Part shown: piece by piece, positions 2,290 through 60,390 of the stretch
How the letters are laid out: every line of letters starts with the position of its first letter
Numbering within the stretch: position 1 is the stretch's first letter
Assembly: GCA_003971905.1 (NCBI GenBank)
Contig: RSEE01000009.1
Span: 930,001-994,000 of the forward strand
Length of the DNA: 64,000 nucleotides
From: Moniliella sp. 'wahieum'
Lineage: Eukaryota
Direction of reading: 5' to 3'
Translations under genes and position numbers: made by a program
The notes under the pieces: generated by a model
The model's database searches: none
Told to the model about the DNA's origin: nothing
The model's input: only the letters and a program-made list of their open reading frames with translations

Positions 2290-2530
2290 TTGCTGAGAGA
2301 TGAAGGATGAAGCTTGAAGGCCCATCGACGCGCTCACCAGAAAAGCAGGTGATCCAAACGCGTGACCCGCGTGACGCGTGACTGGTGACCGGCCGGTGAC
2401 CGGCGGTGACCACAGCAATGATTAATCGATTAATGAGCCAACGAGCGTGATCGAACGTTGGCGTTGATGCATGATGCATGATGCATGATGGTTGGATCCG
2501 CTGGCAGGCTGACCAGTGACCGGTGACTCC
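2290..2530. repeat. Heptamer-palindrome cluster upstream of HRQ1
   Basis: CGTGACG-CGTGACT-GGTGACC at 2370-2390, AATGATT, GTTGATG-(CATGATG)x3 at 2463-2490, AGTGACC-GGTGACT. Confidence 0.85.
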
Positions 2531-5600: not shown

Positions 5601-6854
5601 CCAATGCGCAGCATATGAGATGCCTGTCGATCCTACCACAGATGAGGAGTTCTTCGGTCCCCAGATCCATCGCTTAGCAGAGACGCGACTGGTCAAGGGT
5701 ACTGGTGAACGATCTGCTTTCTACTTTCCTGCCGAGGGTTGGCTGGACAACCCGTCGGGTCAAGTTGCGCTCCGGGGTGGAGGGGAGCCCAAATACACCT
5801 ATGTGGATGTGGGTTCGACGCGGGTACTGGAGGAGGTGGAGATGAGTCGTTCCATCTTTGAGGCGTTTGAAGGAGCGATCTTCATGCACCAGGGCCAATC
5901 GTTCTTATGTGTGCATGTAGACCATGACAAGCGCATTGTGCAAATGAGCAAGTCGGACGCTCGTTACCACACTCGTTCACGCGATCATACCGACATTGAC
6001 GCCGTTCAGACTCAACGCGTACGCTCTCTCACTAAAGATCGAGCCTACTATGGCGTTGTTAGGGTCGAATCAAGGGTATGGGGCTACTACAAAGTGGACA
6101 GGCAAGCCCATATCCTAGACGCTGTCGAGGTCGACACGCCCCCTTATGTTCGCCAGCCGCGGGATGTGGATTGATGTCCCAACTTGGCTTTTGGATGCTT
6201 TGGTCAAACAGGGCATCAACGTTGCAGCAGCTATCCACTCTGCCGAGCACGCGCTGCTCAGTCTTACTCCCCTCTTTAGCCTGGCTTCTGCTGGGGATGT
6301 TCTGACGGACTGCAAATTGCCCGAGCGGGAGCTTAGTACGTCGGGGCCAACAGCGCGCCGAAGACCGGCCCGATTGCTTTGGTACGACGCCCAGATGGTC
6401 TCCAAGGACTCTCGCACCCAGCGAGGAGCGGGACTGTGCTACAAAGCGTTTGAGCATCTCGAAACGCTGGTTAGCATCGCGATGACGGTGATTGAGCAAT
6501 GTTCCTGTGCGGAAGGGTGTATGGCATGTATTCACAGTGATACATGTGCTCATGGTAACTTGGTTTTCAGCAAGGTGGGTGCCTTGGCTATACTTCGTGC
6601 CATCCGTGGCATCAAGCCGTTCGATGAGCGCTTGGAACACCAAGGCGAACAAGGTCGAGCCACCTCTTTGCTCGGAGGCCTCTCTGTCCCAGACTGTACG
6701 GCCCGCCAGCCCCGTGCCGGCTTCCCACACCTTGCCTGTCGAGACGTTTCAGGAGACGCTTCCTCCCGATTTGTCTCTTCCCTCTCAGCGCCCTCGCTCC
6801 CCTGTTGCTACCCCGGGAGCATCTTTGGTGTATGAAGAAGTAGAGGATGAATAA
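2645..6854 (+). CDS. HRQ1: RecQ4-like DEAD/DEAH helicase Hrq1 with C-terminal Zn-binding DUF1998/MrfA domain
   Basis: LYTHQA, ATPTSSGKS (motif I), FPTKALAQDQ, VLDELHVY (motif II), ALELGIDIG, QMAGRAGRR (motif VI), HLQCAAYE, CSCAEGCMAC. N-terminal WPPHFVRLEQTFRA. GTACGT intron near 3565-3622. Several frameshifts. Confidence 0.93.
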
Positions 6855-6947
6855 TATGGCATCCTTCCCTTTTCCTTCCTTTTGGGAGCTACTTGCCATC
6901 AACACCATCTCCTTCTGAGGTTGAACATGGCAAATGATCCAACAATC

Positions 6948-7791
6948 TCAAGATGAGGGCGGACCCCATCCCAGAATACGTTCGCCCCTTTTGACAGCTC
7001 GTGTCCAGATGCGCAGCCACGAGTAGTTCCACGCGGGTCGAAGGTTGGTGACAAGATCGTAAATCAGGGCACGATTGTATGCCCGATGCCGCTCTGTGTT
7101 GGCGCCAAGCCACGCTTGATAGAAATCGCTCAGAGGCACAGGTGGTGGACGAGTATCCGGGGAAGAGCTGGTAGAAGGAAGGAGAGCAGGCGATGCGGAT
7201 GCAGCAAGTTCAGGGGAAACGGAAACGTCGTCGCCTGCACCCGCCTCGAGAGCCAGGGTAGACTGCTGGACAAGTTGAGCTGGTGGCGCAGGTGGGTTGA
7301 CCTGGAAATCGTGCAAGTCACGCTCAAAGCGAGCGTTGTTGTCTCGCCAAAAACGTTGGTGGAAGGCATCAGAATGAACCCGGCGTAATACTGATTGCAT
7401 CTCGGCCACCTCGAGACGCTGGACCAACTCGCGGTAGTACCATGAATGGGGTACTTGGCGGAGGCGCAACACCCCTGCCAGGCCACTCCAGAATGGATGT
7501 TGGGAGCGGTCTGGTCAGGGGCGAGAATGGAGAACTCCGCTAGGCTGTAGGGGTGCGATTTGCGCTTGTCGGTGTCTCCTTCAGATGCGGACGAGGGAGC
7601 CTGAACTTCAAACGCCGAGCCATATCGCACAGGACGCAAGTTGCTGACAGGATCGGGGGGACCAACGATGTCGGCACCGGGCGCGGCAGCTAGATGACGG
7701 CGACTGCGACGTGGAGGATGGTAAACCGTGCACGAAGAGTGATGGAACGTGCTCCCTCCACTGGTCTCGGTAACGGCAGCGGAGGACGCAT
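6948..7791 (-). CDS. COA8: COA8/APOPT1 family mitochondrial protein
   Basis: DIVGPPDPVSNLRPVRY, FHQRFWRDNNARF, LSDFYQAWL..HRAYN. Arg-rich N-terminus. Start uncertain. Confidence 0.8.
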
Positions 7792-8753: not shown

Positions 8754-9928
8754 ATGTCCCACTGCAAGTACGAGCACCCCCGTCACGGTAGCACGGCCTT
8801 CCTGCCCCGGAAGCGTGCTGCGCACCCGCGCGGCCGCGTGCGTGCCTTCCCCAAGGACGACCCTAAGAAGCCCGTCCACCTCACTGCTTCCTTGGCTACA
8901 AGGCTGGCATGACCCACATTGTGCGTGAGCTCGAGCGCCCTGGGTCGAAGATGCACAAGAAGGAGATTGTCGAGTCCGCTACCGTTGTTGAGGCTCCTCC
9001 TCTTGTTGTTGTTGGTGCCGTCGGCTACATTGAGACGCCCAAGGGTCTCCGCGCCCTGACCACTGTCTGGGCTGAGCACCTGTCCGAGGAGGTCAAGCGT
9101 CGCTTCTACAAGAACTGGTACCGCTCCAAGCGCAAGGCGTTCACTACCTACGCCAAGAAGTACTCTGAGGATGGCGGTGCTTCTATCAGCAAGGAGCTTG
9201 AGCGTATCCGCAAGTACTGCACGGTCGTCCGTGTGCTTGCCCACACTCAGCTCTCCAAGACTGGTCTGAAGCAGAAGAAGGCGCACCTGATGGAGATCCA
9301 GGTCAACGGTGGCTCGATCTCGGACAAGGTTGACTTCGCCAAGGAGCACTTTGAGAAGACGGTCGACCTCAAGTCGGTCTTCGCCGAGAACGAGATTGTT
9401 GACGTCATCTCGATCACCAAGGGTCACGGTAACGAGGGTGTCGTTGCTCGTTGGGGTGTCAAGAAGCTTCCTCGCAAGACCCACCGTGGTCTCCGCAAGG
9501 TTGCCTGCATTGGTGCGTGGCACCCGGCTAACGTGCGCTTCACTGTCGCCCGTGCTGGTCAGGACGGCTACCACCACCGTACTGAGCTCAACAAGAAGAT
9601 CTACCGGATCGCCACTGGCTCGGAGGAGGGCTCGGGCTCGACTGAGTTCGATGCCACCAAGAAGGCCATCACCCCCATGGGTGGCTTCCCTCACTACGGT
9701 ATTGTCAACTCGGACTTTGTCCTGCTCAAGGGCTCCATCCCCGGTACCAAGAAACGTGTGGTGACCCTGCGTAAGTCGATGGCTCACCACACCTCGCGCG
9801 CTGCGCTCGAGAATGTGGCTCTCAAGTGGATCGACACCTCGTCGAAGCACGGCCACGGTCAGTTCCAGACCCGCGAGGAGGCCGACGCTTTCCTCGGCCC
9901 CCGCAAGCTCAAGGCTGTCTTCGAGTAA
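8754..9928 (+). CDS. RPL3: 60S ribosomal protein L3 (uL3), intronless
   Basis: [67 protein letters not shown]. Strong codon bias. One apparent 1-nt deletion near 8890. Confidence 0.98.
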
Positions 9929-10474
9929 ACGGTCTCTCTTATGTGGCTTTACAAACCTTTCACAAAATATGGTGGATGCTGTCACCTCGTATGCCTCCAT
10001 GTTTGCATGGCGAATCTCATTGTCGTTGCCACCATAGCCCTTCATGCGTCGCTAGTCTCTTTTCAGGCTTACAGCTTGTCCACTACAGACCCGGATGAAT
10101 GTGAGATCTACTGATTCAAACCAGTGGTCTTTGGGAGCAGACTCGAAGATCATAAGAGGGGAACGATGTTTCAACCGCTCTCGGCGCAAGGGCGCGATCC
10201 TTAAAAAAGACGGCATGCTAACAGTCCGACCCGCGGCCTCCTCGAGTAACTAGTAATCCCTAGAGGTACGAATTGGCAGTGTCCCGCCTTACTCTTCCTA
10301 CCAAGCGAGGGCCTGAGTTATACACGGCTCCCAATCGATTAATATAATGGTGGTAGGTGCCCGTACGTGAAGTTAATTTGACTGAGTTAAGCTAGTTATC
10401 GGAGAAGAGCGCCCCAAACCAACTGTCCTCCGTTCAAGCTTCAAGATCAAACAACCCTGGTAGTGGTGGATGGG

Positions 10475-10528
10475 GGAACGGTGGCGACGGTGGCGACGAT
10501 GGGACGGTGGACGATGAAACGGTGACCC
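10475..10528. repeat. Degenerate 9-mer (ACGGTGGCG) array, copy 1
   Basis: ggaacggtggcgacggtggcgacgatgggacggtggacgatgaaacggtgaccc. Confidence 0.7.
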
Positions 10529-10784
10529 TCTAGTCGCTTAATAAATCGAAGCGAAAAACGCTCGGCTCGGCATACAGAAATGCGTCACACTCAGAAGCCT
10601 CCAACAGCACAGGTTTGTATCACGCTTCATGCGTCACGCGTCACGGGCCTAACTAGCGGTGTGAACCAGAGGCCAAGGAGATGGCATTGCAGAGAAGGGG
10701 GACTAAAAACCTGTGGGCTGTGAGAAACTCCGAAGTCGGAAGCATGTGGAAGGCCCGATGAAACGCGCCGGACGGCCACGTGCC

Positions 10785-12635
10785 ACTGAAGCTTGAAGCT
10801 TGTAGCTTGAAGCTTGAAGCTCTTGAGGGTTTGAAGCTATTAGCTTGAAGCTTGAAGATTGAAGGTATAGCTCTTGAAGCTTGAAGGCCGATGGGCTCGG
10901 GACTGTTGCTCTGGACCATTGGTGTTATAGTCAACAGCTTGAAGGCAGAGAGGTACAGAATTAAGGGTGCAGACCAAGAGGTTACACGTTACATGTTACA
11001 GAAGGTACCAGTAGACCAGGTACGACCAGAGCTATTTATTGGGCCACAACGATTGAGGGCAGAAGAACAATGCAACGGCGACAGGGTTGTGGGTTGAACT
11101 CAATATTCAACGTCGTTCTTCAACGTCCAACGTTGAGCTGATAACGTCGAGAGAGACGTTGAGACGTTGAGGCCGGAAATCCTCAGAGCAATATTAGGCC
11201 TTAGGGTTCCAGTCCGGCACGGACCTCAAGTGAATCACAGTGACGCTCGCGTCGCTAATATATTCTCCGTCGTGGTTCGCTCGCTCGCTCCCTCCTCTAG
11301 TCCCACGTCACCTGTCTCATTCAAGCTCCAAGAGTGCTCTGGCTCACCACTGGGCCTTCTCCTGTAAGACCGGAGGAACCCAAGGGATTGGGTGAAGAAC
11401 CTCTGGAAATGTAGAGCATGCAATCGCGATGGTGGTGGTTCCGGTCTAAGCCTTGTGCCACACCTAGAGACAGGGGTCAGACAAGCCTGAGTGTACACGT
11501 GGAGGCTTCGGAGGACAAATCAGGGGTGAAGGGTGATGAGGCGCCTTGGCCTAAGTACGGGACCACGGGTCCCAACATCTCCCGCTTCTCTGAAGCTTCA
11601 GAAGGTTGAAGCTTGAAGCTTGAAGCTAGCGAAGGAAAAAAACAGCTTTTTGAGCAACTACGGGGGATGACTATATTCAGGGGCCTCAGGCCCCTCAGCG
11701 CCTCAGCGCCTCAGCCCTCAGACTTCAGCGCTAAAGCTTCAAGGACCTCAGCGCTTCAGCCTGTCCGAGCTCCCAGCTGTCTTCAAAAGCTTCAAGCTCT
11801 TCAAACCTGCCTAACGCGTTGTGTGTGACGCACTGAGACGGACTGTTGGGGATCGCGACGGCGGCCTGAGGCTTCCCTGAGGCCTGAGGAGGGTTTGACG
11901 ATCTGAGAGCCACTCTATATCATTTGCAAAGCTTGTAAGGCATGTTACCGGTTACGTGTTATGCATGTTACAGGTTATACTCCTGCAATCATAATAGCAT
12001 TTCTAACGCTAAGACAAGAAGAAAACGCTGCGCCTAAACAACAGTAATAAGCTCGCTCAGCCTCAGCACTCACCTCTGGCGTGTGTTGTACGCGGGTTAC
12101 TCGGTTACTAGTATAAGATTGCGGCCGCTCTAGTAGAGAGTACTGCACTCTGGCACAAAGTTGCTGAGTAGCTAGTAACTAGTAACTAGTGCCTGAGGAG
12201 CTGAGGCAGACTGAGGCGGAACGCTGAGAGGCTGAGTGCCTATCCATCCGTCTAGTGAGTGTTGGTACTGAGTAGCTCGGCTTGAAGTGTGCAGTAAAGC
12301 TAGTAACTAGTAACTAGTAACTAATAGCTGTTTGCTACAGGCATAGTCAAGTAGTAGTGACCCAGCGACTGCTATAGTAGCTGCTATGGCTGGCACTAGC
12401 TATACCTGCGCATGAAGCTCTTGAAGCGTGATAGTGCTGCATGATGCCTGATGCTTCACACGAAGAAGGCTGCAAAGCTTGAAACTTGAAGCTTGCTGGA
12501 GCTGGATGACCGGTGAGATCTGAGAGGTGGGAGGATGACCGATCGATGGGCGTCGAAGGGCGTGCGAATCACGCGTCACGCTGCCAATCACGCAGGTATC
12601 ACATGGCGCATGTGACATGTGACGTGCTGTCACAA
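10785..12635. repeat. Large composite field of heptamer-palindrome arrays
   Basis: About a dozen CTTGAAG-like units at 10785-10886, (N)GTTACA x3 at 10980-11000, CCTCAGN run at 11684-11760, TGTTACC-GGTTACG at 11943, (AGTAACT)x3 at 12302-12322, TGTGACA at 12611. Confidence 0.88.
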
Positions 12636-12969
12636 TCCTCGGGACCGGTAAAAGCAGGCCGCGCCGACCAGCCAGGCCATGCGTCGCAGGCCAGCCCAGG
12701 GCCACGTCTGGGGCTGTGCCGTGCGTGCTGGCGCGGCAGCAGCGCGCGGCAGCCCGCCTGGCCGAGGCCCACGCCGGCCACAGCCGCCGCCAACCGCCAT
12801 CGCGCGCCCAGCATCCCGCCCAGCATCCTGCGACCAGCCACCAGCAGCAGACCGCTGCAGCCCCCCGCCCCGCCGCACCACTCGCTCCCCCTGCCGCCGC
12901 CCATCGCGCCCGCGCCATCGCCCCCGTCTCTCCGTGCTGCCACCCTGCACGCCTGGCCGCATCGCCCTG

Positions 12970-16171: not shown

Positions 16172-16214
16172 CGGCTTTGGCTTTGGCTTTGGCTTTGGCT
16201 TTGGCTTTGGCTTG
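16172..16214. repeat. (GGCTTT)n hexanucleotide microsatellite
   Basis: About 7 tandem units visible. Confidence 0.9.
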
Positions 16215-17528: not shown

Positions 17529-17799
17529 CAGGCTGCGCCCCGCAGGCACCCGAGCAGCGCGTTCCAATCTCCGCTCTGGGCAGCCGCCTGTTGGGACCCC
17601 ACTGTGCTCCCTGTGGTCATCAATCATCACCATGGGCCAGCGTACCGACTGCGCTCGCATGCTCCCGGCTACACCCGCCCCTGGCAGCCGGGTAGCAGAG
17701 GCTGGGGCGGATATATAGCCCTGCTCCATCCTCCCCCCGTCCCTCCTTCCCCTCCAGCCTCCTTCACCCCCCCCCCCCCCCCCCCCCCTCCGCACCCAT

Positions 17800-20631: not shown

Positions 20632-20869
20632 GGCCTGAGGCGACTTGGACTTGGCCGCCTCTTCTCAGATCTCACATCATTCACATCACATCGATCTGCC
20701 GGCACGCGACGCCCTCTCCTCTTTTCTTCTTGCATATATCTCCTGTGCTACTGCCGCCCTCTTGACGTATATATATACAGTCTCTCTTTTGGCTGCTCTG
20801 CTCTGCTCTTTATTGCCTTTTGCCTTTTTATTGTCAATGGACACATGTACGACCCAACGATGCGTTGGG

Positions 20870-22132
20870 AATCAAGCTTCAAGTGTGGCGGCTGCTCGTG
20901 TTGGACGAAGATTCGGCTGCCCTTGAGCTTGATGAACGATTTGATGAATCGGAACGTGCATTAAGTATCTGTATTCTGTAACCATATATTCATTGACAAA
21001 GCTTAAGCTACTGCGGGACAAAGAAGCGCTGCGCCTAATAAACCAACCCGTTCATCCGGCGTGTGTTGCTTGTTACATATAGTGCCAACCCCGTTTAAGG
21101 AACCAGGGGAATAAGTTTAGGACCCATATCTCCATTGAGACTCAGTACTCAGTAGTCAATTCCTTCCAGTTCCCAAGCATCTTGCCCGCTCTCTTGGTGG
21201 CATAGTATCCTCGCGTGGTCAAAACCAAGGGGGAAAACGGTTCTTGGATGTGTCTCTGAGTTAAAAAGAGATCCCCTTTTTACTTCACGTACCATCGTCA
21301 AATTTGACGGCAGCATGCTACCTGCTGGCACATTCAGTGCACCCGCAGCAGCGTATGGGTGATAAAATTCCTTCAGCATGGAACGATGGACCGATAGCGA
21401 CGGTGGCGACGGTAGCGACGGCGGAACGGTGGCCAAGATGGTGACGGTGGAACGGTGGTTATGGTGGTTACGGTGTGGCAACGGTGGCCCAAGCACAACA
21501 GGTTGGGGCGATGCCCAGCAGATCGCGACGGGCTGTACTAGGCCCAGTTGCTCCCGAGCTATTATAACGACAACGGAATTCTGGACTGTGTTCTCGACGC
21601 GCTCAATTGGTGGAACCATCTTGCGGTATCACATTTTTGCCCTGTCCGCTGGGGTTTTAACGTTTAACCGTAGTTACTAACAGGCACTAGTTACTGGTTA
21701 TATTATTGGGACGTCAGTCTTGCCTGTCATGTGACCGTCTGACCACGTATCGGGTATGTCAGCCGCTCAACTGCTGAGACGTCGGCTCTCAACTGCGGGC
21801 CACCCCGCGTGAAAAAGCATGTTGGAGCAACAGAGCAGTACTATATAACCTGTTTTGTGGCGCTGTGGGGGAGGTTGGGACGAGCCGCGACAGGCCCCGG
21901 GCCCCAGGAGCCACCCCCGCACCCCCGCACCCCCATGCTGAGCGCTCAGCTCAGCCTGGCCGACTGAGCGGCTGAGCGCGTTGGGCGCAGCACGCCGTCT
22001 CAGTACTCAGACCATACTCAGACTCCGTCGAGTGGGCAGTGAGTGATTCGTGACTACTCAAGTACTCCAGTACTTACTGGGTACACTGAGCGGGGGCGGG
22101 CGGTGTCAGATGCCAGATGTCACATGTCAAGA
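20870..22132. repeat. Intergenic block with heptamer palindromes and 9-mer array copy 2
   Basis: (ACTCAGT)x2 at 21140-21153, GCGACGGTG-type array at 21380-21490, GTTTAAC, AGTTACT, GCTGAGC-GCTCAGC, TGTCACA. Confidence 0.75.
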
Positions 22133-22295
22133 CAGGCTTGTGGTGCCGCCGGTGCCATAAGCTGATGGCTGCTACAAGAAGGGTTTTAATTGTTTTCGGC
22201 TCAGATGCGCGCACCAGGGCTATAGTACCCCTTAGAAGAGTAACCCGTCCCAACCATCGCCACCGCCGCCTCCGTCTTCACCCTCCCCACCAAGC

Positions 22296-23652
22296 ATGGC
22301 CTCCTCTACGTCTCATACTCGCCGCAGATCGGCCAGCAGCTTGCTCCCCGGCGCCCTCCATCCCACTCTTCGGGCCCACCCCAAGGCCTATACTACCTCC
22401 AACTCTGGCCGCTCGCACCCGATCATCGCCCGTCGAACGCAGCGCATCGCCCGCGCGCATCTTGACCATCCCCAGTCCCGACTCTCCCCCGTCTTGAGCA
22501 CCTCGCCTTTCGCCTCCACCGTCCCTCCTCTACCATCCGCCAGGCGTCCACCCCCCATAATGCGCCCCTCATCCGCTCGGCTACTGCTACAAACACTTAC
22601 TGCCACCGGCCCCTGCGGCTTCGGTCAACGCTTCCGACCTGGACCGGTTTGTGTTGCTGCAGGGGTGGGTGCTGAAGAAGAAGCGTAAGATGATGCAAGG
22701 TGTGCCTGCCTGTCCTGTATGAGCGATGGTGGGTGGCATACTAACCCTCGCGAGTGCCAACCAAAGGGTACGCTATGCGCTACTTTACGCTTGATAAGTC
22801 TGGCACCTTAAGCTACGCAATGGGACCCGGCCTCCCCGTCCGGACGAAATTGAGGTGGTGCATGCAAGGGTCCTATCTAGCCTGCGCGACCAAAGCATCC
22901 ACGTGGACAGTGGTGAAACCGTCTTCCGTTCGTCCTCCTCTCCTCCCCTATACGTGTCATTTCCTGCTTGCGCTGACTTGCTGACTTGTTCTTGGTGTCA
23001 CGATATCAGATCTGCGGATGCTCACCGACGCTGACTTCTCCCTCTGGCGCAACACATTACGTGACACGATTGCAGGCGAAGCAGCTACTCCGTTCCCCCT
23101 TCCTCAACAACACGTCTACACCACCCAACCCGGGTCTGACAACTTTGTACAGGTGGACATGCGACCCATCTTGGAGCTTCCCAGCGTATGCACGACACGC
23201 TTACCGAGGTCCAAAAGCACGTTGCACGCATTGTGGCCAAAACACCAGGAGCATCGGAAGTGGCCGGGGAGATGGTTTCTGGTGCGTCTACCCGGGGAGG
23301 CGCTTCCTCAGCCTCGCTGTCGACCCCGGCCATCCAGGCGGCCAAGGTGGAAAGACTGGTCACCCAGATGGCCGGCGAAAGCAGTGGTATGATTGCCTTT
23401 CTTGAAGGCAATCTGCCTCTGGGGATGGGCGGGGAGGCAGATGCGGCCCCTGACGGGGATGTCACGCCAACTCGCCGCCAGCCCCACCCTGCCTTGCAAC
23501 GCAAGGAGAGTTTTCAAAGTGCAACCGGCTCGTTTGCCGACCTGGACTCCTTTGCAGCTTTCCTCCCCCTCCTCGAACGCGGCGGGATTACACATCCGCT
23601 CAGCCTCGCCGTTGCCGTTGGGAGCGAAAGTGACAGTACTGCCAGCTCGTGA
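22296..23652 (+). CDS. PH-domain protein (Osh3/ORP3-type PH domain), two introns
   Basis: LLQGWVLKKKRKMMQG|intron|YAMRYFTLDKSGTLSY..IHVDSGETVF|intron|LRMLTDADFSLWRNTL. Introns near 22700-22766 and 22928-23009. Confidence 0.75.
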
Positions 23653-24274: not shown

Positions 24275-25716
24275 ATGGCTGATGTCGAGTCCTGGCCCCA
24301 AACAAGGAGCAAGTCGGTGGACCACCACCCGCTCGAGTCCGCTGTCGACAGCGACAGCCTCCCGGCCGGCAATGCCGCCAAATTGACCTCCACCGAGGCC
24401 ATCTCTTCTGCTCTGCCCCAAATCACCCTCTCCTATGGCACAGAGACCGGTGGCATATCAACACCGATCGTTCCTGGCGCCTCGGCGCCTCCCAGTATTT
24501 ACACGGTGGGGCTGGCGTCTCGCGCCAAGGCACAGAGACGAGTGAGTCGGATCCCTTGCTGCTGCGCTCCCGCAGGTAGGCGAGAATGAGTTGCGGCAGC
24601 GCGCGCAAAATGTGCGCGGTGCTCGTGGGCGCAAAGCGGGAAATGCGTGGAGCAGTTTTACCAGCGCCAAACACGCACATTGATGACTTGCTTAAGCCAT
24701 GTCGGCCTATGTGGCCGATGATGCAGAACAGATGTCGGCCACAGCACCAGGGTCAAGATTGGAATCTACGGTTCCATTGCCGCTAATTTTATTCTTGCTA
24801 CTCTTCAACTTTACGGCGCTGCTTCGTCCGCGTCTCTGTCTCTCATTGCTACATGTGTTGACAGTGTGTTCGACCCTGTACCCTTGTCGCTATCGGATGG
24901 CTCTGTGGTTGAGTCGGTTTGGGGGATGGCTGCACGGTGCTGACGTTCTTTTCTCTCCATCGATGCGAGTAGTTTGCCAACCTAATTCTTAACTATCTGC
25001 ACCGTAAATCGGAAAAGGTTGACTTGCGGAAATGGCCATGTGGGGGGGGTCGGTTTGAGACGATTGCCAACATTGCCTATGCCTTTTTGATGGGCAGTGT
25101 GTCTGCAATCGTGATCGTCGAGTCGATTCGTGATCTCGCATCGCACCACGCGAGCGATAAGGAAACGCTTCATGTGGCCTCCCTCGTTGTTGTGGGCGTT
25201 GCATTCTGTGTCAAGGCGGCCTTGGCAGTATACTGCTATTCGTTGCGCAAGTTTAGCTCGCAGCTCGAGATGCTGTACGAGGACCATCGCAACGATCTGT
25301 TTATCAATGGGTTGGGTATTATCACTTCGGCTTTGGATCACAGGTCTGGTTCCTAGATCCGCTGGGGGCGATGCCATTTCGCTGTTTATCTTGGGCGCCT
25401 GGTTCTTAACCTCTGTTCGCGAATTTCGCCTGCTGGCTGGCGTCACAGCCCCCCCCGATGCTGAGCTTGCTGGCGTACAAAGTGATGCTCTATCACGAGA
25501 AGATTGAGTTGGTCGACACGGTAAGGCGTACTGGTGGGGCCCACGCCTGATTGTGGAGTTGACATTGTCATGCGTCCTGAAACGCCGCTGTGGATGGCCC
25601 ACGATGTGTCGCAAGACCTCCAAGACCGCATCGAAGAATTGCCAATGGTCGAGCGGGCCCATGTGCATGTGGACCACGAGTCGAACCACACACCCGAACA
25701 CCGCAAGGCTGTATAG
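24275..25716 (+). CDS. Cation diffusion facilitator, MTP8/MTP11-like (Mn-type)
   Basis: HIDDLLKPMSAYV, RFETIANIAYAFLM, LYEDHRNDLFING, DIVMRPETPLWMAHDVSQDLQDRIEELPMVERAHVHVDHE. Confidence 0.9.
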
Positions 25717-26324
25717 TTGCCTGCTTTCCCTCCCCGTCATCAAACCCACTAGTCCCAGTGCCAACCAAATTTTTCAGGCTTCCCCCTATCATTTGCTACC
25801 AATCTCGCCACCTGTACTCACCATTCAATGTTGATAATCCAACTCAGCATCAAGTTGTCGTGTGATATAATAGTAAGGCATAGCAAACATGGCGTTGTTG
25901 GGGCACAGGAAAGCTAATTGCATTGGCAGCACTGGAAGTGAGAGCGGTCAAGTGGCGCGGGTGTGTGGATACGACTTTTCGCCACATCTGGCTTGAGCGC
26001 GTGAGCAAGCTCTGGGATTGATGCGATGGCAGGATTCGGCCAAAGGATTTCGGTGGATTGGAGTACGAACTAGCCACTTGATGAGGGCTGATGACTCGAT
26101 ACCCACAACCGTCTATATACAATTGGGCAGGGCCGGGGACCCGCTTCTACGAAGTACAGAGTGTGCGCAGGCACTAAGCAACGCGGGCGAGTAGAAACGA
26201 TATAGGACGGCTTCATTTAAACGAAAATAGGTCACACCTACTTGCGACGGGGCTGTTGGTGTTTCGCATTTCCTTCTCATATGCAGATATGGCATAGCAG
26301 GAAGAGGTTGACGAAAACAGAAGG

Positions 26325-29300
26325 CTAGGTCGTCACTTGGGCACGGAAGCGAGCCAACTTGCTTGCAGTGGGCTGGGGCGCTTGGGATTGAGATTGGGAC
26401 TGGCTTTCGTCCACGTCGGGGCTTGAGTCTCTTCCAGCCCCGACGCGGCCAAGCGCTCTTCCTGCGTGCGTGCCGTCTCGAGGGTGAAGCGAAGGCTCTC
26501 TTCTTGGGTTTCGCCCAAGTCCCCTCTTCCTGAGTTTCTTCATCAACCAGTGCAGGCGTAGGCTCCGTGGTTGGACCCGTTGCAAATGGGAGCTTGCCCT
26601 GCCGCTGTTTCTTGGAGGCCGCCTTGCCCATACCAGAACCCGGATCAGTACCATGCACCGTGCGCAGCTCGGTCAAAGCGGTCTGTAGGCCTTCCGCATC
26701 ATCCACACGGTTGAAAAGCTGGCACTCTTATGTAGACTGGGTCGCGAGTCATGCCGCCGTTCTTGCGGGCAAAAGGGTTGCCACCTTTGGCTCGAGCAAA
26801 GGGATTGCGGCTCGCTGAGGCACAAGTAGAGTCATATCATAGACAAGAAATGAATCAGACGACATACCTTTCTCAGGAGGAGCGGTGGGGGAGGATCATC
26901 GTTCGCTTTGCGCTTCCGACCTTCGTCACGTCCTCCTGCATCGCCTCCTCGGCATTCGCCTCATCGTTCTGCATTTGCTGGCGAAGCAGATTCACCTCCT
27001 CTTCGATGGTCATAGCAGACTGTTGGGATGGTTGAGACGGAGGAGCGAACTAGATGGAGGTGCGAGAGAAGTGCTGCGCGACGAAGGGAGAGGGGTCATG
27101 CTCTCTTCTCGTCGGCTCGGCAGCGGCGTGAGCTTAGACCGACGCGACAAGGCATCCGAGTTTGAAGTCTTGCGTCAACGCCTTCTTTGCCCGAGCCACC
27201 GCCGATTGTTGACTATCGTCAGGCGCGGGCCTCGTTGGATAGTAGGAGCAATGACAATCGTCCCCCAGGTACAATGTTGGTTCGGGCCTCGGCTCGAGCC
27301 GCGACAATGGGCTTGAGATCACGGATTTGTTCCGCCAAGTTGGCCATGCCAAAGTAAGCTGCGATTTGGGCAGCAGCGACGACAGAGCGGGGCATGTTGA
27401 GCTCGCGCGCGGCATCAAGCGCCTTGTTTTGGTGGTCGCTGGCCTTACACACTGCTTGGAGTGTCTGGAGCAACGCACGATCTGCCTCGCTTTCCAAAGT
27501 CTCTGGGTTGGCGTCCTGGCTCTTGGGCGCTTGGGCCGGCTGAGCACGGGCTTGGGTCGAAGTAAGCATCAGACGAAGAAAGGTCTCCTCATGTTTCGCC
27601 TCCTCGGCACCACGGACGTAAGCACAGGTACGCAGCGGCACTCATGGATCAAAGTGTGGGTGCCGACGGGTCTGGTTGGTTACTCGTGAACCCTTCAAGG
27701 CGAGCGTCACCGCCGCTCGCCAGGTGACCGAGATAGGCCAGTAATGGACATCTGTGCGCTCCCCATCCTCCATGGTACGCACATCCAGCACTGGGACCCA
27801 ATGCCCGGACTGGGGTGAAGAAGGACGCTCAACACTCCGCGCGAATCCCAGATGGCAGGGGCGTCCAAGTCGTGAAGCCGATCCAAGTCAAACTTGCTCC
27901 TTGGGCCAGAGGGATCACACCGTGCCCCTCGGGCGAAGGATTGAAGATCAAAGAGCTGATACGTCAACTCTTGGTATCCACCCAGGGCCACCGGCGGCCC
28001 CGTCACAACCATGCCAGTGTACGACCCGCCCGCCACTGCAACAACTCGGCCCCAACAGACCAAATGGCACGTTGCAGCCCTGCACGGGAGAAAATGCGAA
28101 GAAAAGCCGTCGCTGGTTGAGGCAAGGATCACCGTGGCAGCGGCTGCGGCCGTGTCCAGTTCGTCCTCTACATCCGCGTTAGGCTTGCGTTTGGCCCACC
28201 CAGTGCAAGACAGGTGGCTCGCACACCGCTCGGGAGTGACACGCGCCATTCGGAGCTAGTGGACCAGCCCAGCTCAAAGGGCTTGAAGAACATACGCCTT
28301 CTTGCTCGGGCGACGTGGGTTTGGAGGCAAACACCGCACCTTGTTCACTCAGTGCACCACAGCAAAGCCCCCTGTCTCGGTGAGGCGCCAGTTGCGGCGA
28401 GCTGACGTGTTAAAGCTCTCAAAGTTGATCGTTTGCCCAGCCCTTTCAACCTTCAATATTGGTTTGCTCGACGGCCACAAGAGGCCCACAGTGTTGAAAG
28501 CAAGATAGCGACGGCCATTGCGGGAAGGAGTTGAAGTGGGTTGAAATGTTTTTTGCCCCCGGCGCAAAAGACGAGTCAGGTGAGACGGCAAGACCGAGAC
28601 CTCTGACTCGTTGTCCGACTCGCTCAAGACCCCAGGGCTTGGGTGACGACGTGCGCGAGGTTCATGGCCCCGGGGAGAGGCAAGATCAGGGTAACCCATA
28701 CGAATGGATCCATCGGGGCATTGGATGGGACGCCGTTTGGGTCAGCATGACGAGCTGTTTGTGCAGAGCGAGCACGACTGGTGGTGGGGTCTTCGTTCTC
28801 GGCCTCGTCGAGCGAAACCCGGGAAAGGAGGAGAGCGGGCGCTGTGTTCGCAATGGAAGGTACCCTGGCTTCCATATTCGCGGGCAAACATCTTCCAACG
28901 GTAGAGCTGGCCACCCAAGTCGGCCCACGCCAGAGCACCGATCAACAGCCCAAGAAATAGAGACAATGTCCGATTCAGACGTCTTGCGTGCGATCGGTGC
29001 CAAAGTAGTCATATCCCATAGGGTGAGCTGTCCATTACCTGCCGTGGCTGAGGCAAGGTAGCGCCCATTGAACGAAAAAGCCAGCGCAGAAATGGGCCCT
29101 GATGGAGGTGCAACGCCGTTTTGGGGTTGACCGTTGAAAACACGATGGCGCTCCCATAGACCAGTGCCAGTATTGCGACCATATACCACGAGCTCATTAG
29201 TCTTGCTAGGAAGGACGAAAAAGCGGCCGCTTGGATGCCATAGGGCGTAGATGGCATGGGGCTGTAGCCAACAGCAGTCACTGGGAGAACATCTTTGATG

Positions 29301-39292: not shown

Positions 39293-39552
39293 CTTGAAGC
39301 TTGAAGGCTTCAGCTTGAAGGCTGATGCGCTGATGAGTACTGAGTTACTGAGTCGATGAGGCCTGCGGGGCTGAGGCCACACACGGTCATATTCACACCC
39401 TCAGGCCTCAGACAGGTCAGGGTCACCGACCCGGTCAGCCCCCCGGTGAGGACCTGAGGCCCGTATGAGGCTGCTGTGTTCGCCAAGGAGTCGGCCAGAG
39501 TCGGGATGGCCTGACCTATCCTCTACTGCTTAATCGACCTCAGGCCTCAGGG
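39293..39552. repeat. Heptamer-palindrome cluster upstream of endosulfine gene
   Basis: (CTTGAAG)x2, ACTGAGT x2, CCTCAGG-CCTCAGA, GGTCACC, (CCTCAGG)x2. Confidence 0.85.
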
Positions 39553-40370
39553 CCCCATTGCATATTGGTCGAGATCAGAGGATAATGGGGAATGGAGCTG
39601 CTTGCTGAGTTCGCCTGTGGTCCGTTATACGTGTCAGTACAAAGTAAGTATCCATAGTTTTTGACAGGCTGACGATGCCAACCAATAATGAGTAGACAGC
39701 GCCGAAGGGGGTGCACCAGATGCGCCATCCCATCCTTTGCTAGAGGGGGGCGCGATGGTAAGATTCATCATGGAGACCAGAGCACACTACAGTAGTTCCA
39801 TGTTGGCTGCCCCCAGGTCTCAGGTTTCCGGCGTCAGAACTATACAGCAACAGGTGTATGGCAGTGTGGTGGCAGCGTGGTGGCTGTGTGGCTGTTGGGC
39901 GGGGCAGGCTGGGCTGAGTGTGGGAGACAGGCGTGGTGGGAGGCGGCCGATGGGGTGATAGTCTGAGCGGTCTTACATCTGTGAGAGCTGCGGTATGCGG
40001 CGGTCAGACCGTCAGATTCTGACATATGGGGGCGGGGTGGGATCTGGTGGGACACTGGTGTCTGGGGACACAGCGGAAAGGCGTGCTGTTGGGCCCTGTT
40101 GAGCCTCCCCGCACTGATCCGCCACAACTCACACTCGACAGACACGCGCTATGCCTGCGCTGGCGAACCCTCTGTGGCTCGTGCGCCCCTTTTGCTCTGC
40201 CGCCGCGCTCGAACGCCACAACAAGCGACAGTATAAATACCGCCAGCTCGGCCCTTGTGGACTTTCTGCGCTCCCTCTCCGCATCAGGCTCCGGCACATC
40301 CATCTCTCTTCACTGCCTTGTCCACTGCTGCCCTCATATTTCCTCGCTCGCTCCACTCACCTCCAGACGA

Positions 40371-41303
40371 ATGGCTGTACGTTCCCTTCCAAAACTGAGA
40401 GCCACGCCCCATCAACATTGACCCTCGTTCCTCTTCTTCCCATGCAAAAAGAAGCTAACCTCTACTGTTTGGACAGACGACCCCTTCCCCTTCTCCCATG
40501 TCAGCCGCTGATGCCACCTTGGCCGCCCGGTTTGGCGGTCGGGTACCCACCAAGAAACCGTGGCTCCAAGCACGGCTTAAGGAGCGCAAATACTTTGATT
40601 CTGGTGACTATGCTCTAAGTCAAGCGGGAAAGGCGGACCGGCGCGAAGTGGGACGGGAGATAGCCACCCCTCAAGCATTGGGCGCAGGCACGGTGGATAC
40701 GAAACCAGAGCGGGAACCGGAACCGGAAGTGTTGGTGAGCAGAGAGCAGGTCCACGACCAAGGGCTAGAGGAGGAGATGATGATGAAGGAAGAGCCAGAG
40801 ACCGAGTGTGCCTTTGTTTCTTCGCCTGGCATCTCCCTTGCTCTTCGGGGGACGTCGGACCGTTACCGTTCTGCCACGTTGCCCACTTCTTGCTCTCCTT
40901 GCACGTGCGCTGTTGGTTCCTCGCCACCGCTCCTCCGTACCGCGTCGCTTGCCTCGCCCTTACTTGTTCCTAGGTCTCCTTCTACCCCTCATCAAAACCT
41001 TCCATGTTCCCCGACCGAGGTCTGCAGCGGGTCTCGACCATCCCCATTCACCACGCCGGCTCGCCCCATGGTCTTTCTTCGGTTACCGGCTCGGTGGTCA
41101 TGCCCCCTTCACCCTCTGCCGCGCACAGCACAATGGGAGGACAAGGCAGGTGTCCACCGCACCTCCGTCCTCGCTCTGGGTCCCAGTTGAGTCGAGAATC
41201 GTTTAGTGCCTCCGATGCGGCTCGCGCCGCTTCTAAGGCAAACGATGTGGCCAATGAGCAGATAGGTCCTCGGGTCCCAGAAGAGCGAGGTGGTCTTACC
41301 CTA
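40371..41303 (+). CDS. IGO1: Endosulfine / ARPP-19 family protein (Igo1-like)
   Basis: ARLKERKYFDSGDYALSQAGK signature. Coding exon 1 is ATG GCT, and intron 40377-40476 (GTACGT..GCTAAC..CAG) joins it in frame. End uncertain. Confidence 0.85.
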
Positions 41304-42564
41304 GCCCTGGCCTTGCTCATCATCTGCTCTGTCACCATGCATCTTCATTACTTGGACTTTTGTTGTCTTGATCTCGTCCCATCTTTTTGCTTGTCTCATT
41401 TCATCTCAACTCTCAATCTCATCTCGTCTCGTCTCGTCTCATCTGATCTCATGTGAACTTCCTCGTCTCTTCGTCTTGTCTTGGTCAGTTGTTCAGTTGT
41501 TGATTTCTTGCTATACCATTCCTACGGAGGTGTCCTCACTGCAGGAGATCACGACGACCACGTGCAAATTTGCGTGGGATGAGGTCATACGAGTACAGGT
41601 TGCGCTCTCCGCTCTTCGCCTCTAGTCTCGCCTATGTGAAAGGAAAGGATGTTGCAAAGACTTCTGCATCCAGGCCCCATGGAGGGAGAGATGGAAGATG
41701 GAGTACGGTCCGGGTCTGAGAACTGACGTGGATTTTATGTCACAGATACAAACAGGGAGAAAATGGAAGGGCTGTGCTATACCAGTGGCAGCCCAGGGGC
41801 GAGAAACTCAAAGGAAGTATGAGAACTACGCGGAATGCGGTCTTCTTCTTCTCCCTCTCCCCACCTATCTCAATACACTTTTTCATCTGCTGCCTGAAGT
41901 CTAAGGTCAATCTCCACGTTGTGTGCGCCAAGAACCCAGGTAAGATGCATCCCTCCTCCGCCATCGCGATTTTATCGGGACGAGGTATATAGGCCTGCAT
42001 CCCAGAACCACCGAAAGATATAATGGGGCTAGAGGGACAGAAATGTCAATGCTGATTGAAAATTGGAGTCAAGCGGTTGTAAACGTAAAGCGTACGTAAA
42101 GGAGAACAAAAGGTGAGATTGTACGTTGGGACGGTCGTACGGTCGTAACGCGTAAGGAGGGGTCATCGTGTTGGGCGCGGGAAGCGGGGGGAGGAACGAA
42201 GGAGGGGAGAGGATCACAGGATAAGCCAGGTCGTTCAAGTCGTTATAGGGAGGAGCGGGGGGGATGAGGAAAAGGAAAGACGTGGCACGCTGTGCTCACG
42301 CCGAGGTTGAAAGATAAAAGGGGGAAAGGCGTAATGGGAAAGGGGCAATACGTGAGAGGTAAGGGGAAAGGGGAAAGGGAAGGGGTGAGGGAAGGAACAA
42401 GCGGCAACAGAGACCAATGACGCACCCACAAGCAACCCCAACAGAAAAAAAAATAAACAAAAAAGACAACCGAAAAAGATGAAAAGCCAAGCCAACAGAA
42501 GCCATGAGGAGACCACAACGGACGGAGGCGGAGGGGGGAGGAGAAGGGGGTAAGATGGTCATCA

Positions 42565-44685: not shown

Positions 44686-44752
44686 GGGGACAGCGTCGGG
44701 GACAGCGTTGGGGACAGCGTTGGGGACAGCGTTGGGGACAGCGTGGGGACAG
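44686..44752. repeat. 12-bp tandem repeat (GGGGACAGCGTT) x~5.5
   Basis: Directly visible just upstream of the ATG at 44675. Confidence 0.9.
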
Positions 44753-45077
44753 CAACGGGGTGGTAAGAGTGAAGTGGAGGCAGCAAGGTATAGTGACCAA
44801 TACCTAGTGCCTGGCAAAGCGCACCCGCTGCCCTCCAGCAGGTCTGATTAACCAGAGGTCCCACACCACAAACAAACCTCTGCCAATACTTGGAATACAC
44901 CCCCTCCGGTGCCGACAGGGACGAATACGGTGGGCAACCACACTGGCGCTGTGCTGGATGACGGACAGCGCCCGCCACCACCCCGCCCAGGGGACAGTGC
45001 CCCCGTGCTTTAGCTCCTGCACCCGCACAGCGCCAGTCCCCTCCGCTCCCTCAAGCGATCGACGGGCCAACAGCGGC

Positions 45078-45693: not shown

Positions 45694-48823
<3,130 letters not shown>

Positions 48824-53362: not shown

Positions 53363-53525
53363 CGTGTGTGGTGGGGGCAGTGAGCGGTTCGCGTGGAGTA
53401 TGAAGAGGAGAAGAAGGGGGAGAGGGGAGGGAGGGGGGGGGGGGGGAGACGGCGAGGGCGAAGGTGAAGGTGGTGGTGAGTATAGGCAGTCGCGCACTGC
53501 AAATGCTCTGCTTGCCCCCAAAGCC

Positions 53526-53799: not shown

Positions 53800-53891
53800 T
53801 TCCCCAACCGGGAGTCGAACCCGGGTCTTCACGGACCAGCTCAGCGGAGGAGCTTGAAAGCGTGACATCATAGCCGTTGGACCATTGAGGA
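53800..53891 (-). tRNA. tRNA-Glu (TTC) with 20-nt intron at 53835-53854
   Basis: Acceptor TCCTCAA/TTGGGGA, anticodon arm TCACG-CTTTCA^C-CGTGA, T-arm CCGGGTTCGACTCCCGG, T7 Pol III terminator at 53791-53797. Confidence 0.95.
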
Positions 53892-58936: not shown

Positions 58937-60390
58937 CTGAATCTGAGCGGCTGAGCGCTGAGCCTCAGCGCTCAGTGTATCCTGCACGGGGCAGGCTGAG
59001 TAACCGAGTGCGCTGCTGCCCGGGCGCTCGGACAACAGTGTGAGCATTGCACGTACTGTGCTAGCGCCAGACGGGCAACGTACGTAACGCGTAACCGGGT
59101 AACCCTGTTTAACCACCCTTGGCGTTGCACACAGCCCACGCGCTTACCGCACGGGGAGTGCCATGCGTCACACACCCAGCCGCTGTCTGTGTAGTGCGGC
59201 GTCCTGGCTGCGTCCGCCTGCTGCCGCCCAGTGCCCAGCGCCACGGGCGGCTGCCACCCTCGCATGCACCGGTTTGCGTGCTGCCGCGCCACAGCAGCAG
59301 CGCACGCAAACAGAAGAGGCCTGGTGCAGCATGTAGACAGCCAAGCACCCACCCGCACGCACCGCGCCGCCCTCCCACCCAGCCACCCTCCCCGCTCACC
59401 AGCCGCCCTGCGCCTCCGTCCAATCGAAGCCTGCAGCATCCGGCCAGTCTGGGCCAGTGCACCCTGCCCACCGCGCCCATCCCGATCCGGGCCCTGTTGA
59501 CACCCTGCCGGCACAGCAGCAGTGTCCAGCCCCAGTAAGCCCCAGTAGGCTGGGGCTGGTACCGGGGAAGAATAACCGGCAACCGGTGACCGGTGACCGA
59601 GGGGTGGTATATGTCCTGGCATCTAGATACCGCAAGTAACGTGGCCCTGGAGGCATCTTGGATTCAATATTCAATCTCCAGAGCCTTGAGCGCTTCAGCG
59701 CACTCAGCCGGAAGAACCTGCGTGTCGTCCTCTGGCCCGCGTACCCCCTCCCGAGTCTTCGCTACTGAAATTACTGAAACCAGCCGCCACGATCGCCAGT
59801 CGCAGACATCGATCAGGATTGCATATTGCTTTGCTGCATATTGCATTGACCGCATGCAAATGCCTTACGTAGCGCGTGGCGCCTTACGCGTTACGCCCTG
59901 CGGTTGGTAATCGACGCTGCCCTTGACCTCTCGTTTCAACTGAAGCTCCACCGTCGTAGCATGCGACAAGAACCCATTGGCAGAGTGGGAACCGGGAACC
60001 AGCAGTCGATAATCGGTCGTCTAACGTTTATTGATTATCGAGCTAGCTAGTAACTAGTAACTAGTAGCACAGTACTTCCGTGTCACAAGCCACATATCAC
60101 TATCACACACTACGTCTTCCGAGGTATTGGCTCGTCACGCGTCACGCATCACGCGTCACTCGCGCCATAGCTCACGCGCTCTGGGAGGATCACCGAATCA
60201 CTGTCACTAGTGTCACTAGCACTAGTCACTAGGTCAGGTGTCACTGGTTCCACGAGTTGTGAGAACGTACCCAAAGGCTTTGCGGCGTTAACGTTTAACG
60301 TTTAACATTTAACGTTTGCCCTTCGGTGGTTACTTATTGCAAGACCGGGTACCGGATACCGGGGTTACCGGTTACCCGCGGTTACCTACT
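58937..60390. repeat. Heptamer-palindrome field upstream of SREBP
   Basis: (GCTGAGC)x2, CGTAACG-CGTAACC, (GGTGACC)x2 at 59585, (ATTCAAT)x2 at 59662, (AGTAACT)x2 at 60049, CGTCACG-type x4 at 60133-60160, GTTTAAC-type x4 at 60286-60313, GGTTACC x3. Confidence 0.88.

Follow-up and report, generated by a model that had tools for sequence, protein, structure and literature searches.

The canonical footprint of Tc1/mariner elements, for example the TAC(A/T)GTA of Sleeping Beauty, is a palindromic heptamer in which only the middle base is free; the flanks are fixed, and each repair sets the middle base anew. PIF/Harbinger elements produce a 3-nt target duplication of the form T-N-A or T-W-A. A 2003 paper on Tc1 transposition in Ustilago maydis reportedly mentioned footprint-like sequences in that genome. 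The closest known anatomy to that described below is found in the excision footprints of transposons with flank hairpins (hAT elements such as Ac/Ds, Transib and Mutator-like elements) and in V(D)J coding joints, as these are presented in the cited parts of two reports (PMC5499845, PMC5873905). For Ac/Ds in Candida, the cited part of one of them describes, in 128 revertants, two joints that predominate and 26 that are rarer, and P nucleotides (PMC5873905). In our literature searches, no description of the pattern analysed here, or of the stacking of such scars, was found.

The TNA scars compared with known footprints

The window (the whole stretch of 64 kb that was analysed) contains the form TNA-4-nt palindrome-TNA, with the same N in both triplets, 82 times, against 2.6 in 30 dinucleotide shuffles, and among these palindromic links a period of 7 was strongly favoured over 6, 8 and 9. 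The 75 arrays, with 14 different palindromic tetramers and all four letters at the centre of the triplet, are sited in non-coding spacers. Like the flank-hairpin footprints and V(D)J joints, as far as the cited parts describe these, the scars have a short direct target duplication at the joint (in 72 of the 82 links the direct repeat reaches 5 nt or more on one or both sides, and the mode of the period-7 match over the tracts is 5 nt) and a P-type inverted complement (here the 4-nt palindrome). One predominant joint is likewise accompanied by many rarer ones: the nearest same-centre site lies at 7 bp in 120 cases, the spacings of 6 bp (37), 8 bp (44) and 9 bp (36) are raised, and 15 cases lie at 4 or 5 bp. 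Unlike the footprints in the cited parts, the duplicated word is anchored at TNA and is about 5 nt long, the P nucleotides stand on one side only, and the scars are stacked into arrays and same-centre blocks; the stacking implies repeated return to the same few bases. A further difference, which holds for this window, is that neither an element nor a transposase was seen. Among the 265 open reading frames of at least 100 aa in the window there was no transposase Pfam family. No inverted-repeat element with a TNA duplication came up in the 51 inverted-repeat pairs whose arms reach 12 nt or more; a single pair is flanked by a direct repeat of 3 nt or longer, and this repeat is CCA. Beyond the arrays, the window held no long paralogous repeats that could polarise single insertions.

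With the Tc1/mariner footprint the scars share the palindromic heptamer, but here the flanks vary and the centre is inherited: the second centre of a link repeats the first in 82 cases, against 8 with the complementary letter and 7 with another. Thus, the copy is direct. The block structure given below argues against a repair-lottery origin of the centre. The T-N-A anchor is as in PIF/Harbinger, but the direct repeat of at least 5 nt (the same 72 of 82 links) and the 4-nt palindrome are not, and no PIF/Harbinger-type element was seen in the window. Short tandem non-coding arrays, some of them degenerate, also recall the micro- and minisatellites formed by slippage, from which the present arrays differ in that one rule holds for 14 unit types, half of the tracts are shorter than two units and period 7 is favoured.

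Since the period-7 match was shorter than 7 in 37 of the 75 tracts (mode 5), these tracts are not whole-unit duplications; among the minimal tracts 17 had a 5-nt match, and 13 of these were one-sided 5+2. Complementary ends were kept in non-7 spacers (45/117 vs 31/149, p = 0.002). For the idea that flips of the centre are inverted copies, two sets of counts were compared. When the second centre was complementary, the form TNA-P4-TN'A (P4, palindromic tetramer) was found 8 times against 2.2 expected, and the non-complementary class showed a similar rise (7 vs 3.1). For neighbours within 30 bp with the same flanks and different centres, the centres were complementary in 10 cases and of another kind in 4; the complementary share in far pairs was 54%. 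We also considered an arrangement in which the tetramer is the target duplication and the TNA comes from the element ends. It is disfavoured by the isolated forms, TNA-P4-TNA being found 52 times and P4-TNA-P4 10 times, and by the inheritance of the centre.

Blocks of TNA sites with a shared centre

The initial annotation had described local domains of heptamers that share one central triplet, among them a change from TGA to TCA and back to TGA at 39293-39472. The heptamers there were confirmed (CTTGAAG x3, GCTGATG, ACTGAGT x2, GCTGAGG, CCTCAGG, GGTCACC and GGTCAGC). In the counts that follow every TNA site was taken in, and the p values are binomial tails against the non-coding centre frequencies. 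The first block (39293..39378) has TGA at 10, TCA at 1 and TTA at 1 of its 12 TNA sites (p = 7e-4). Its units are CTTGAAG x3, GCTGATG x2, ACTGAGT x2, GATGAGG and GCTGAGG, and it includes two exact 5+2 scars, TGAAG-CT-TGAAG at 39295 and TGAGT-AC-TGAGT at 39334. The second block (39385..39440) has TCA at all 7 TNA sites (p = 7e-4), with the units TCAGGCC-TCAGA, GGTCAGG, GGTCACC and GGTCAGC and a 5+2-type scar, TCAGG-CC-TCAGa, at 39401. Its CCTCAGG is the reverse complement of the CCTGAGG units that flank the block on both sides, and there are inverted matches to the flanking TGAGG units. At 39441..39472 TGA resumes (3/3 sites, p = 0.04) as three TGAGG words with fillers of 3 nt and 6 nt. A second exact copy of CCTCAGGCCTCAG lies at 39538..39550, 139 bp beyond the first copy.

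The other domains that had been named were likewise found. The stretch 2290..2530, in the spacer upstream of the HRQ1-type helicase gene, had been called almost all TGA and has TGA at 21 of 26 TNA sites (p = 2e-6), with TGAC-x (2350-2421) and TGAT-x (2434-2490) sub-blocks. The stretch 60133-60250, described as TCA, has TCA at 12 of 12 sites (p = 4e-6); the longest run in the window, 15 consecutive TCA sites of which 14 are TCAC, covers 161 bp at 60083..60243. In the TTA stretch 60286..60390, which consists of (TTAACGT)n and then GGTTACC units, 9 of 13 sites are TTA and the other 4 are overlapping TAA (p = 2e-5). Two further examples are 11677..11727, where seven consecutive TCAG words are spaced by 7-9 bp with the inner C..G constant and the outer bases varying, and 12194..12285, where seven of eight consecutive TGA sites are TGAG and the spacing of 8-23 bp is out of the 7-bp register. 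The density of TNA sites per 100 bp is 9-14 in the named blocks and 5.1 in the non-coding DNA overall. Note that an 11-bp unit, CCGG-TGA-CCGG, of the same design with 4-nt in place of 2-nt arms, is repeated 2.6 times at 2384-2411; the window has two period-11 palindromic links, both in this unit.

Over the whole window, the centre was common to 482 of the 1181 pairs of adjacent non-coding TNA sites that lie within 40 bp of each other; 3000 label shuffles gave 340 ± 15. Runs of at least five consecutive same-centre sites in non-coding DNA numbered 33 (5.3 ± 2.3 after label shuffling); none of 1000 shuffles reached 33 runs, and the longest run was 15 against a shuffle maximum of 11. The median span of the runs was 59 bp (range, 24-161 bp). 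The coding map was made from a self-trained codon score with the best segment taken per open reading frame, which replaced a 40-codon sliding scan that was too weak; it is approximate, and the gene models are rough. In predicted coding DNA, runs of at least five were mildly raised (10 vs 4.4 ± 2.0, p = 0.011), probably owing to codon repeats such as TGATGATGA and to the rough coding mask.

A shuffle test of neighbours with different flanks had been proposed with the annotation, and the centres of such neighbours proved not to be independent. With the centres shuffled per array, pairs of different-flank strict palindromic heptamers within 100 bp had the same centre in 99 of 239 cases against 71.0 ± 10.7 (p = 0.010), a result that comes from one 64-kb window with p about 0.01; at the level of arrays the count was 63 of 165 against 48.9 ± 6.0 (p = 0.015). 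For different-flank pairs at 101-300 bp there was no same-centre excess (141/505 vs 149.7, p = 0.72). Base composition alone would account for about 190 of the 315 strict heptamers (an arithmetic estimate), and this dilutes the test. The different-flank effect is real, yet modest and short-ranged (within 100 bp). Adjacent arrays of perfect palindromic links had the same centre in 7 of 13 cases within 60 bp and in 9 of 20 within 100 bp, both small numbers. Sets of units selected by links, and arrays with any spacer, gave very strong same-centre values but were excluded, since their units are picked for having a same-centre neighbour and the test becomes circular.

Probable descent of the blocks and alternative explanations

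Adjacent sites with the same centre also have a flank dinucleotide in common, roughly twice as frequently as do neighbours whose centres differ. The right flank dinucleotide was common in 115 of 428 same-centre pairs and in 61 of 581 different-centre pairs, and the left side behaved likewise. With the comparison limited to spacings of 9-40 bp outside the multiples of 7, the right dinucleotide was shared in 34/201 same-centre vs 33/382 different-centre pairs, and the left one in 39/201 vs 38/382. Conversely, the centre was the same in 185 of 317 adjacent pairs with a common flank dinucleotide and in 176 of 530 without a common flank base. The constant part within the blocks usually exceeds the triplet (TCAC in 14/15, TCAG in 7/7 and TGAG in 7/8 sites). 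Related sites were then collapsed by dropping any site with a flank dinucleotide in common with one that precedes it by up to 60 bp, the centre being ignored; this centre-blind procedure was used because a centre-dependent collapse is biased towards the null. After it, one run of at least five was left (1.0 expected) and adjacency fell to 167/544 against 154 ± 10 (p = 0.12); a small surplus was left within 80 bp (233/733 vs 207 ± 12, p = 0.018). Most of the block signal thus comes from neighbours with a common flank dinucleotide, that is, from copies of a word of at least 5 nt, and since the run excess vanishes on centre-blind collapse, the blocks are families of related copies.

The annotation had offered, as one origin of each block, growth from a local seed with palindrome-preserving co-variation. 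Copy families agree with this, and the idea of a local seed is in essence correct, but a seed that simply multiplies within the 7-bp lattice is too simple an account: different-flank same-centre pairs stood at multiples of 7 in 14 of 99 cases, no more than by chance. Because the blocks are out of the 7-bp register, variable joints are needed. Of the two flank bases, the inner one was common to 26 of 99 near same-centre heptamers against 186 of 1105 far pairs, and the outer one, which adjoins the joint, was shared no more in near than in far pairs (25/99 vs 301/1105). Variable joints would yield this sharing of the inner base only, together with the raised spacings of 6, 8 and 9 bp.

We consider it reasonably probable that every block goes back to one TNA-centred scar, whose copies make up a small family, descended most likely on the same strand. 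The elementary event is a short insertion that turns TNAab into TNAab b'a' TNAab, in which TNA and about two adjoining bases are copied directly and about two reverse-complement bases are placed at the joint. The middle letter is inherited because TNA is copied directly, and a point change or an imprecise joint next to a copy is turned by the next event into a new, perfectly palindromic flank because the palindrome is written from the two bases beside the core. By this route one core with different palindromic flanks arises without selection on co-variation. The activity would hit its own earlier scars again far more often than naive TNA sites, and fewer than half of the joints would have the exact 5+2 form; re-hitting and imprecise joints together may produce blocks of about 25-160 bp out of the 7-bp register. 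A flip from TGA to TCA would mark a boundary between lineages, or a single change of the centre or inversion of a palindromic unit. The anatomy of the scar most resembles the end-joining of hairpin-capped flanks after cut-and-paste excision.

Forward simulations were performed with parameters set by hand and not fitted (40% exact joints, 300 events, 15% divergence and 15 replicates each). Uniform targeting gave 15.7 ± 3.9 runs of at least five and a different-flank same-centre share of 0.31 ± 0.06; the observed 33 runs were reached in 0 of 15 replicates and the observed share of 0.42 in 1 of 15. Hot zones without scar preference gave 19.6 runs and a share of 0.33, with 0/15 and 1/15 replicates at the observed values. 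Scar preference was defined as a preference for TNA sites with a same-centre neighbour within 12 bp. When it was 10-fold, 28.9 runs and a share of 0.40 were obtained; when it was 50-fold, 35.5 ± 3.5 runs and a share of 0.44 ± 0.05, with the observed values reached in 11/15 and 10/15 replicates. The link counts and spacings also match under the scar-preferring simulation. A pure exact-7 model with mutation can reach the number of runs, but gives about 210-250 palindromic links against 72 observed, and a register of 0.38-0.50 against 0.13. In none of the simulated models was the raw adjacency of 0.406 reached (best, 0.352), and the longest run of 15 appeared in 0/15 replicates; the simulated background held more TNA sites than the real DNA. 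We read these results as showing that the process must come back to earlier scars again and again, and that such return suffices in kind; they give no measured rate.

More tentatively, we propose as a possibility, short of an expectation, that the writer is a TNA-recognising cut-and-repair activity, new to description, in a Ustilaginomycotina lineage, which leaves a 5-forward/2-backward scar and prefers its own scars at least 10-fold. If so, promoter-side spacers would fill with self-propagating, strand-coherent micro-domains, and the genome would carry an inbuilt source of new short palindromic motifs for its regulatory DNA, for which no resident transposon is needed. The novelty lies in the blocks and in the account given of them. 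Through the blocks, a repeat grammar that had been static becomes informative about a process, and the scar system gains three properties: the centre is inherited directly, the palindrome is regenerated mechanically, and the activity would target its own scars, with variable joints. The middle base is copied and not reset at repair, and the palindromic co-variation comes from the mechanism and not from selection. These properties narrow the search for the enzyme. They favour an element or nuclease that re-targets strongly at close range and makes joints of the hairpin type, and they yield predictions that can be counted when strains are compared. Should the activity still be alive, it would be a fast local source of new palindromic promoter motifs.

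A different history, in which replication slippage long ago made long heptamer microsatellites that have since decayed into the blocks through point changes and small indels, and the different flanks are only mutated copies, is in our estimation unlikely. Degenerate repeats of the expected kind do exist: 10787-10884 is a degenerate (TGAAGCT)n of about 10.7 copies, an environmental contig (L062, see below) holds at 11433-11500 a TGA-N-GCT array in which only the first spacer base varies, and the non-7 spacers are often one extra base off a palindrome, as in GGGCC and GCGCC. However, decay breaks palindromes, and yet it is among perfectly palindromic units with different flanks that the same centre is in excess (99/239 vs 71). 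Slippage would add whole units of any sequence; here 37 of the 75 tracts are shorter than two whole units, with period-7 matches below 7, and 52 of the 82 links are isolated two-TNA scars. The units obey the TNA and palindrome rule, a single rule for all 14 palindromic tetramers.

Selection on function, with the blocks kept in promoters or leaders as homotypic oriented protein-binding sites or as sense-strand stop triplets, appears to us improbable. It would account for the placing of the arrays in spacers that hold a promoter, for the lack of any palindromic array in three convergent spacers, and for the strand of the palindromic arrays upstream of the nearest predicted gene, which read TGA in 25 cases vs TCA in 9, and TAA in 9 vs TTA in 4, on the strand of that gene. 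These upstream arrays are clustered, six spacers leaning one way and two the other, and the upstream TGA excess is a hint only. Against a functional origin, the use of four centre letters and 14 tetramers implies no single site, and the sense strand of same-direction spacers has TGA and TCA in nearly equal numbers once copies are collapsed (307 vs 295; 525 vs 466 raw). Spacers of the same configuration may also have opposite polarity, 1271-2532 being all TGA and 20843-22298 having TCA 4 times and TTA once. The gene models on which such strand counts depend are rough.

The last comparisons also bear on the second origin offered in the annotation, a processive, strand-polarised mechanism, coupled to transcription or replication, that writes one centre letter along a stretch. 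We regard this as very improbable, although long runs do exist (15 TCA sites over 161 bp; TGA at 21 of 26 sites over 240 bp) and TGA sites lie in slightly G-skewed surroundings (0.054 vs -0.004), a small link of TGA with local skew. Polarity set by transcription or replication would extend over kilobases, but the median block is 59 bp long, and within one spacer of 2.8 kb (9926-12767) the centre changes 12 times among 16 arrays. Block polarity, which was to be related to the direction of transcription, showed no such relation after copy collapse (the 307 TGA vs 295 TCA given above, on the rough gene models). Moreover, if unrelated TNA sites were being written, the run excess would not be expected to vanish when sites with a common flank dinucleotide are collapsed, as it does. 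Chance with local base composition, which by itself would supply about 190 of the 315 strict heptamers, is refuted by the shuffles and can be set aside almost entirely (links, 82 vs 2.6; adjacency, 482 vs 340 ± 15; runs, 33 vs 5.3 ± 2.3, with 0/1000 shuffles reaching 33).

Genomic setting and occurrence elsewhere

The window is eukaryotic nuclear DNA with split genes. By Pfam, it holds genes for an HRQ1-type helicase (4276-6832), ribosomal protein L3 (8867-9925), a carnitine acyltransferase and a cation-efflux protein on the plus strand, and for COA8, a DnaJ protein, Ctf4/Mcl1, a short-chain dehydrogenase, a branched-chain ketoacid dehydrogenase kinase and a bHLH protein on the minus strand. 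The best named relatives of the L3 exon are from Tilletiaria anomala (81%), Violaceomyces, Moesziomyces, Tilletia and Malassezia, and the organism is therefore a member of the Ustilaginomycotina or a close relative. The nearest supported gene to the 39293-39472 blocks is an endosulfine family gene on the plus strand (40145..41450 by the codon-score map; PF04667, E = 4e-15, Pfam match at 40459-41187), with the blocks about 0.7 kb upstream of its start. The region 39293-39472 itself had no Pfam match and, in a rough codon scan, little coding signal. The three convergent (3'-to-3') spacers, 25342-27221, 6815-7138 and 41451-42031, contain no perfect palindromic array (small numbers), and all 75 palindromic arrays lie in spacers with a promoter side.

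A scan of the window with Rfam gave one tRNA, and nothing at the blocks. The tRNA (53800-53891, minus strand; 45.4 bits, full model, 92 nt) was not called by ARAGORN in bacterial mode and probably bears an intron; the 274-bp spacer around it also contains TGA and TTA arrays. A C22 run at 17767-17788 and a G-rich run of about 31 nt at 53416-53446 form an inverted pair with 35.6 kb between them, and are probably independent homopolymer tracts in spacers.

Metagenomes were scanned for (TGAAGCT)3, and 121 loci were obtained, most of them without the grammar; 29 hold any other palindromic link. The pooled different-flank test within 100 bp showed no excess for these 29 loci (146/610 vs 155) or for the other 92 (166/521 vs 155), and an excess at 101-300 bp in the pooled loci reflects the pooling of unlike compositions. 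Two environmental contigs of 52-54% GC, L062 (856-880, 1687-1711 and 11433-11500) and L034 (1996-2015), have the same kinds of arrays as the window, namely TGAGATC x3, TAACCGG x3 and TCAGGCC x3, and also a TGA block whose first spacer base varies. The scar grammar thus exists outside this assembly.

Tandem arrays outside the TNA rule are also present in the window: a perfect (GGCTTT) x6.8 at 16173-16213, a degenerate (GGGTTT) x9.3 at 46497-46552, and a 12-nt unit, GGGGACAGCGTT, repeated 5.8 times at 44686-44753.
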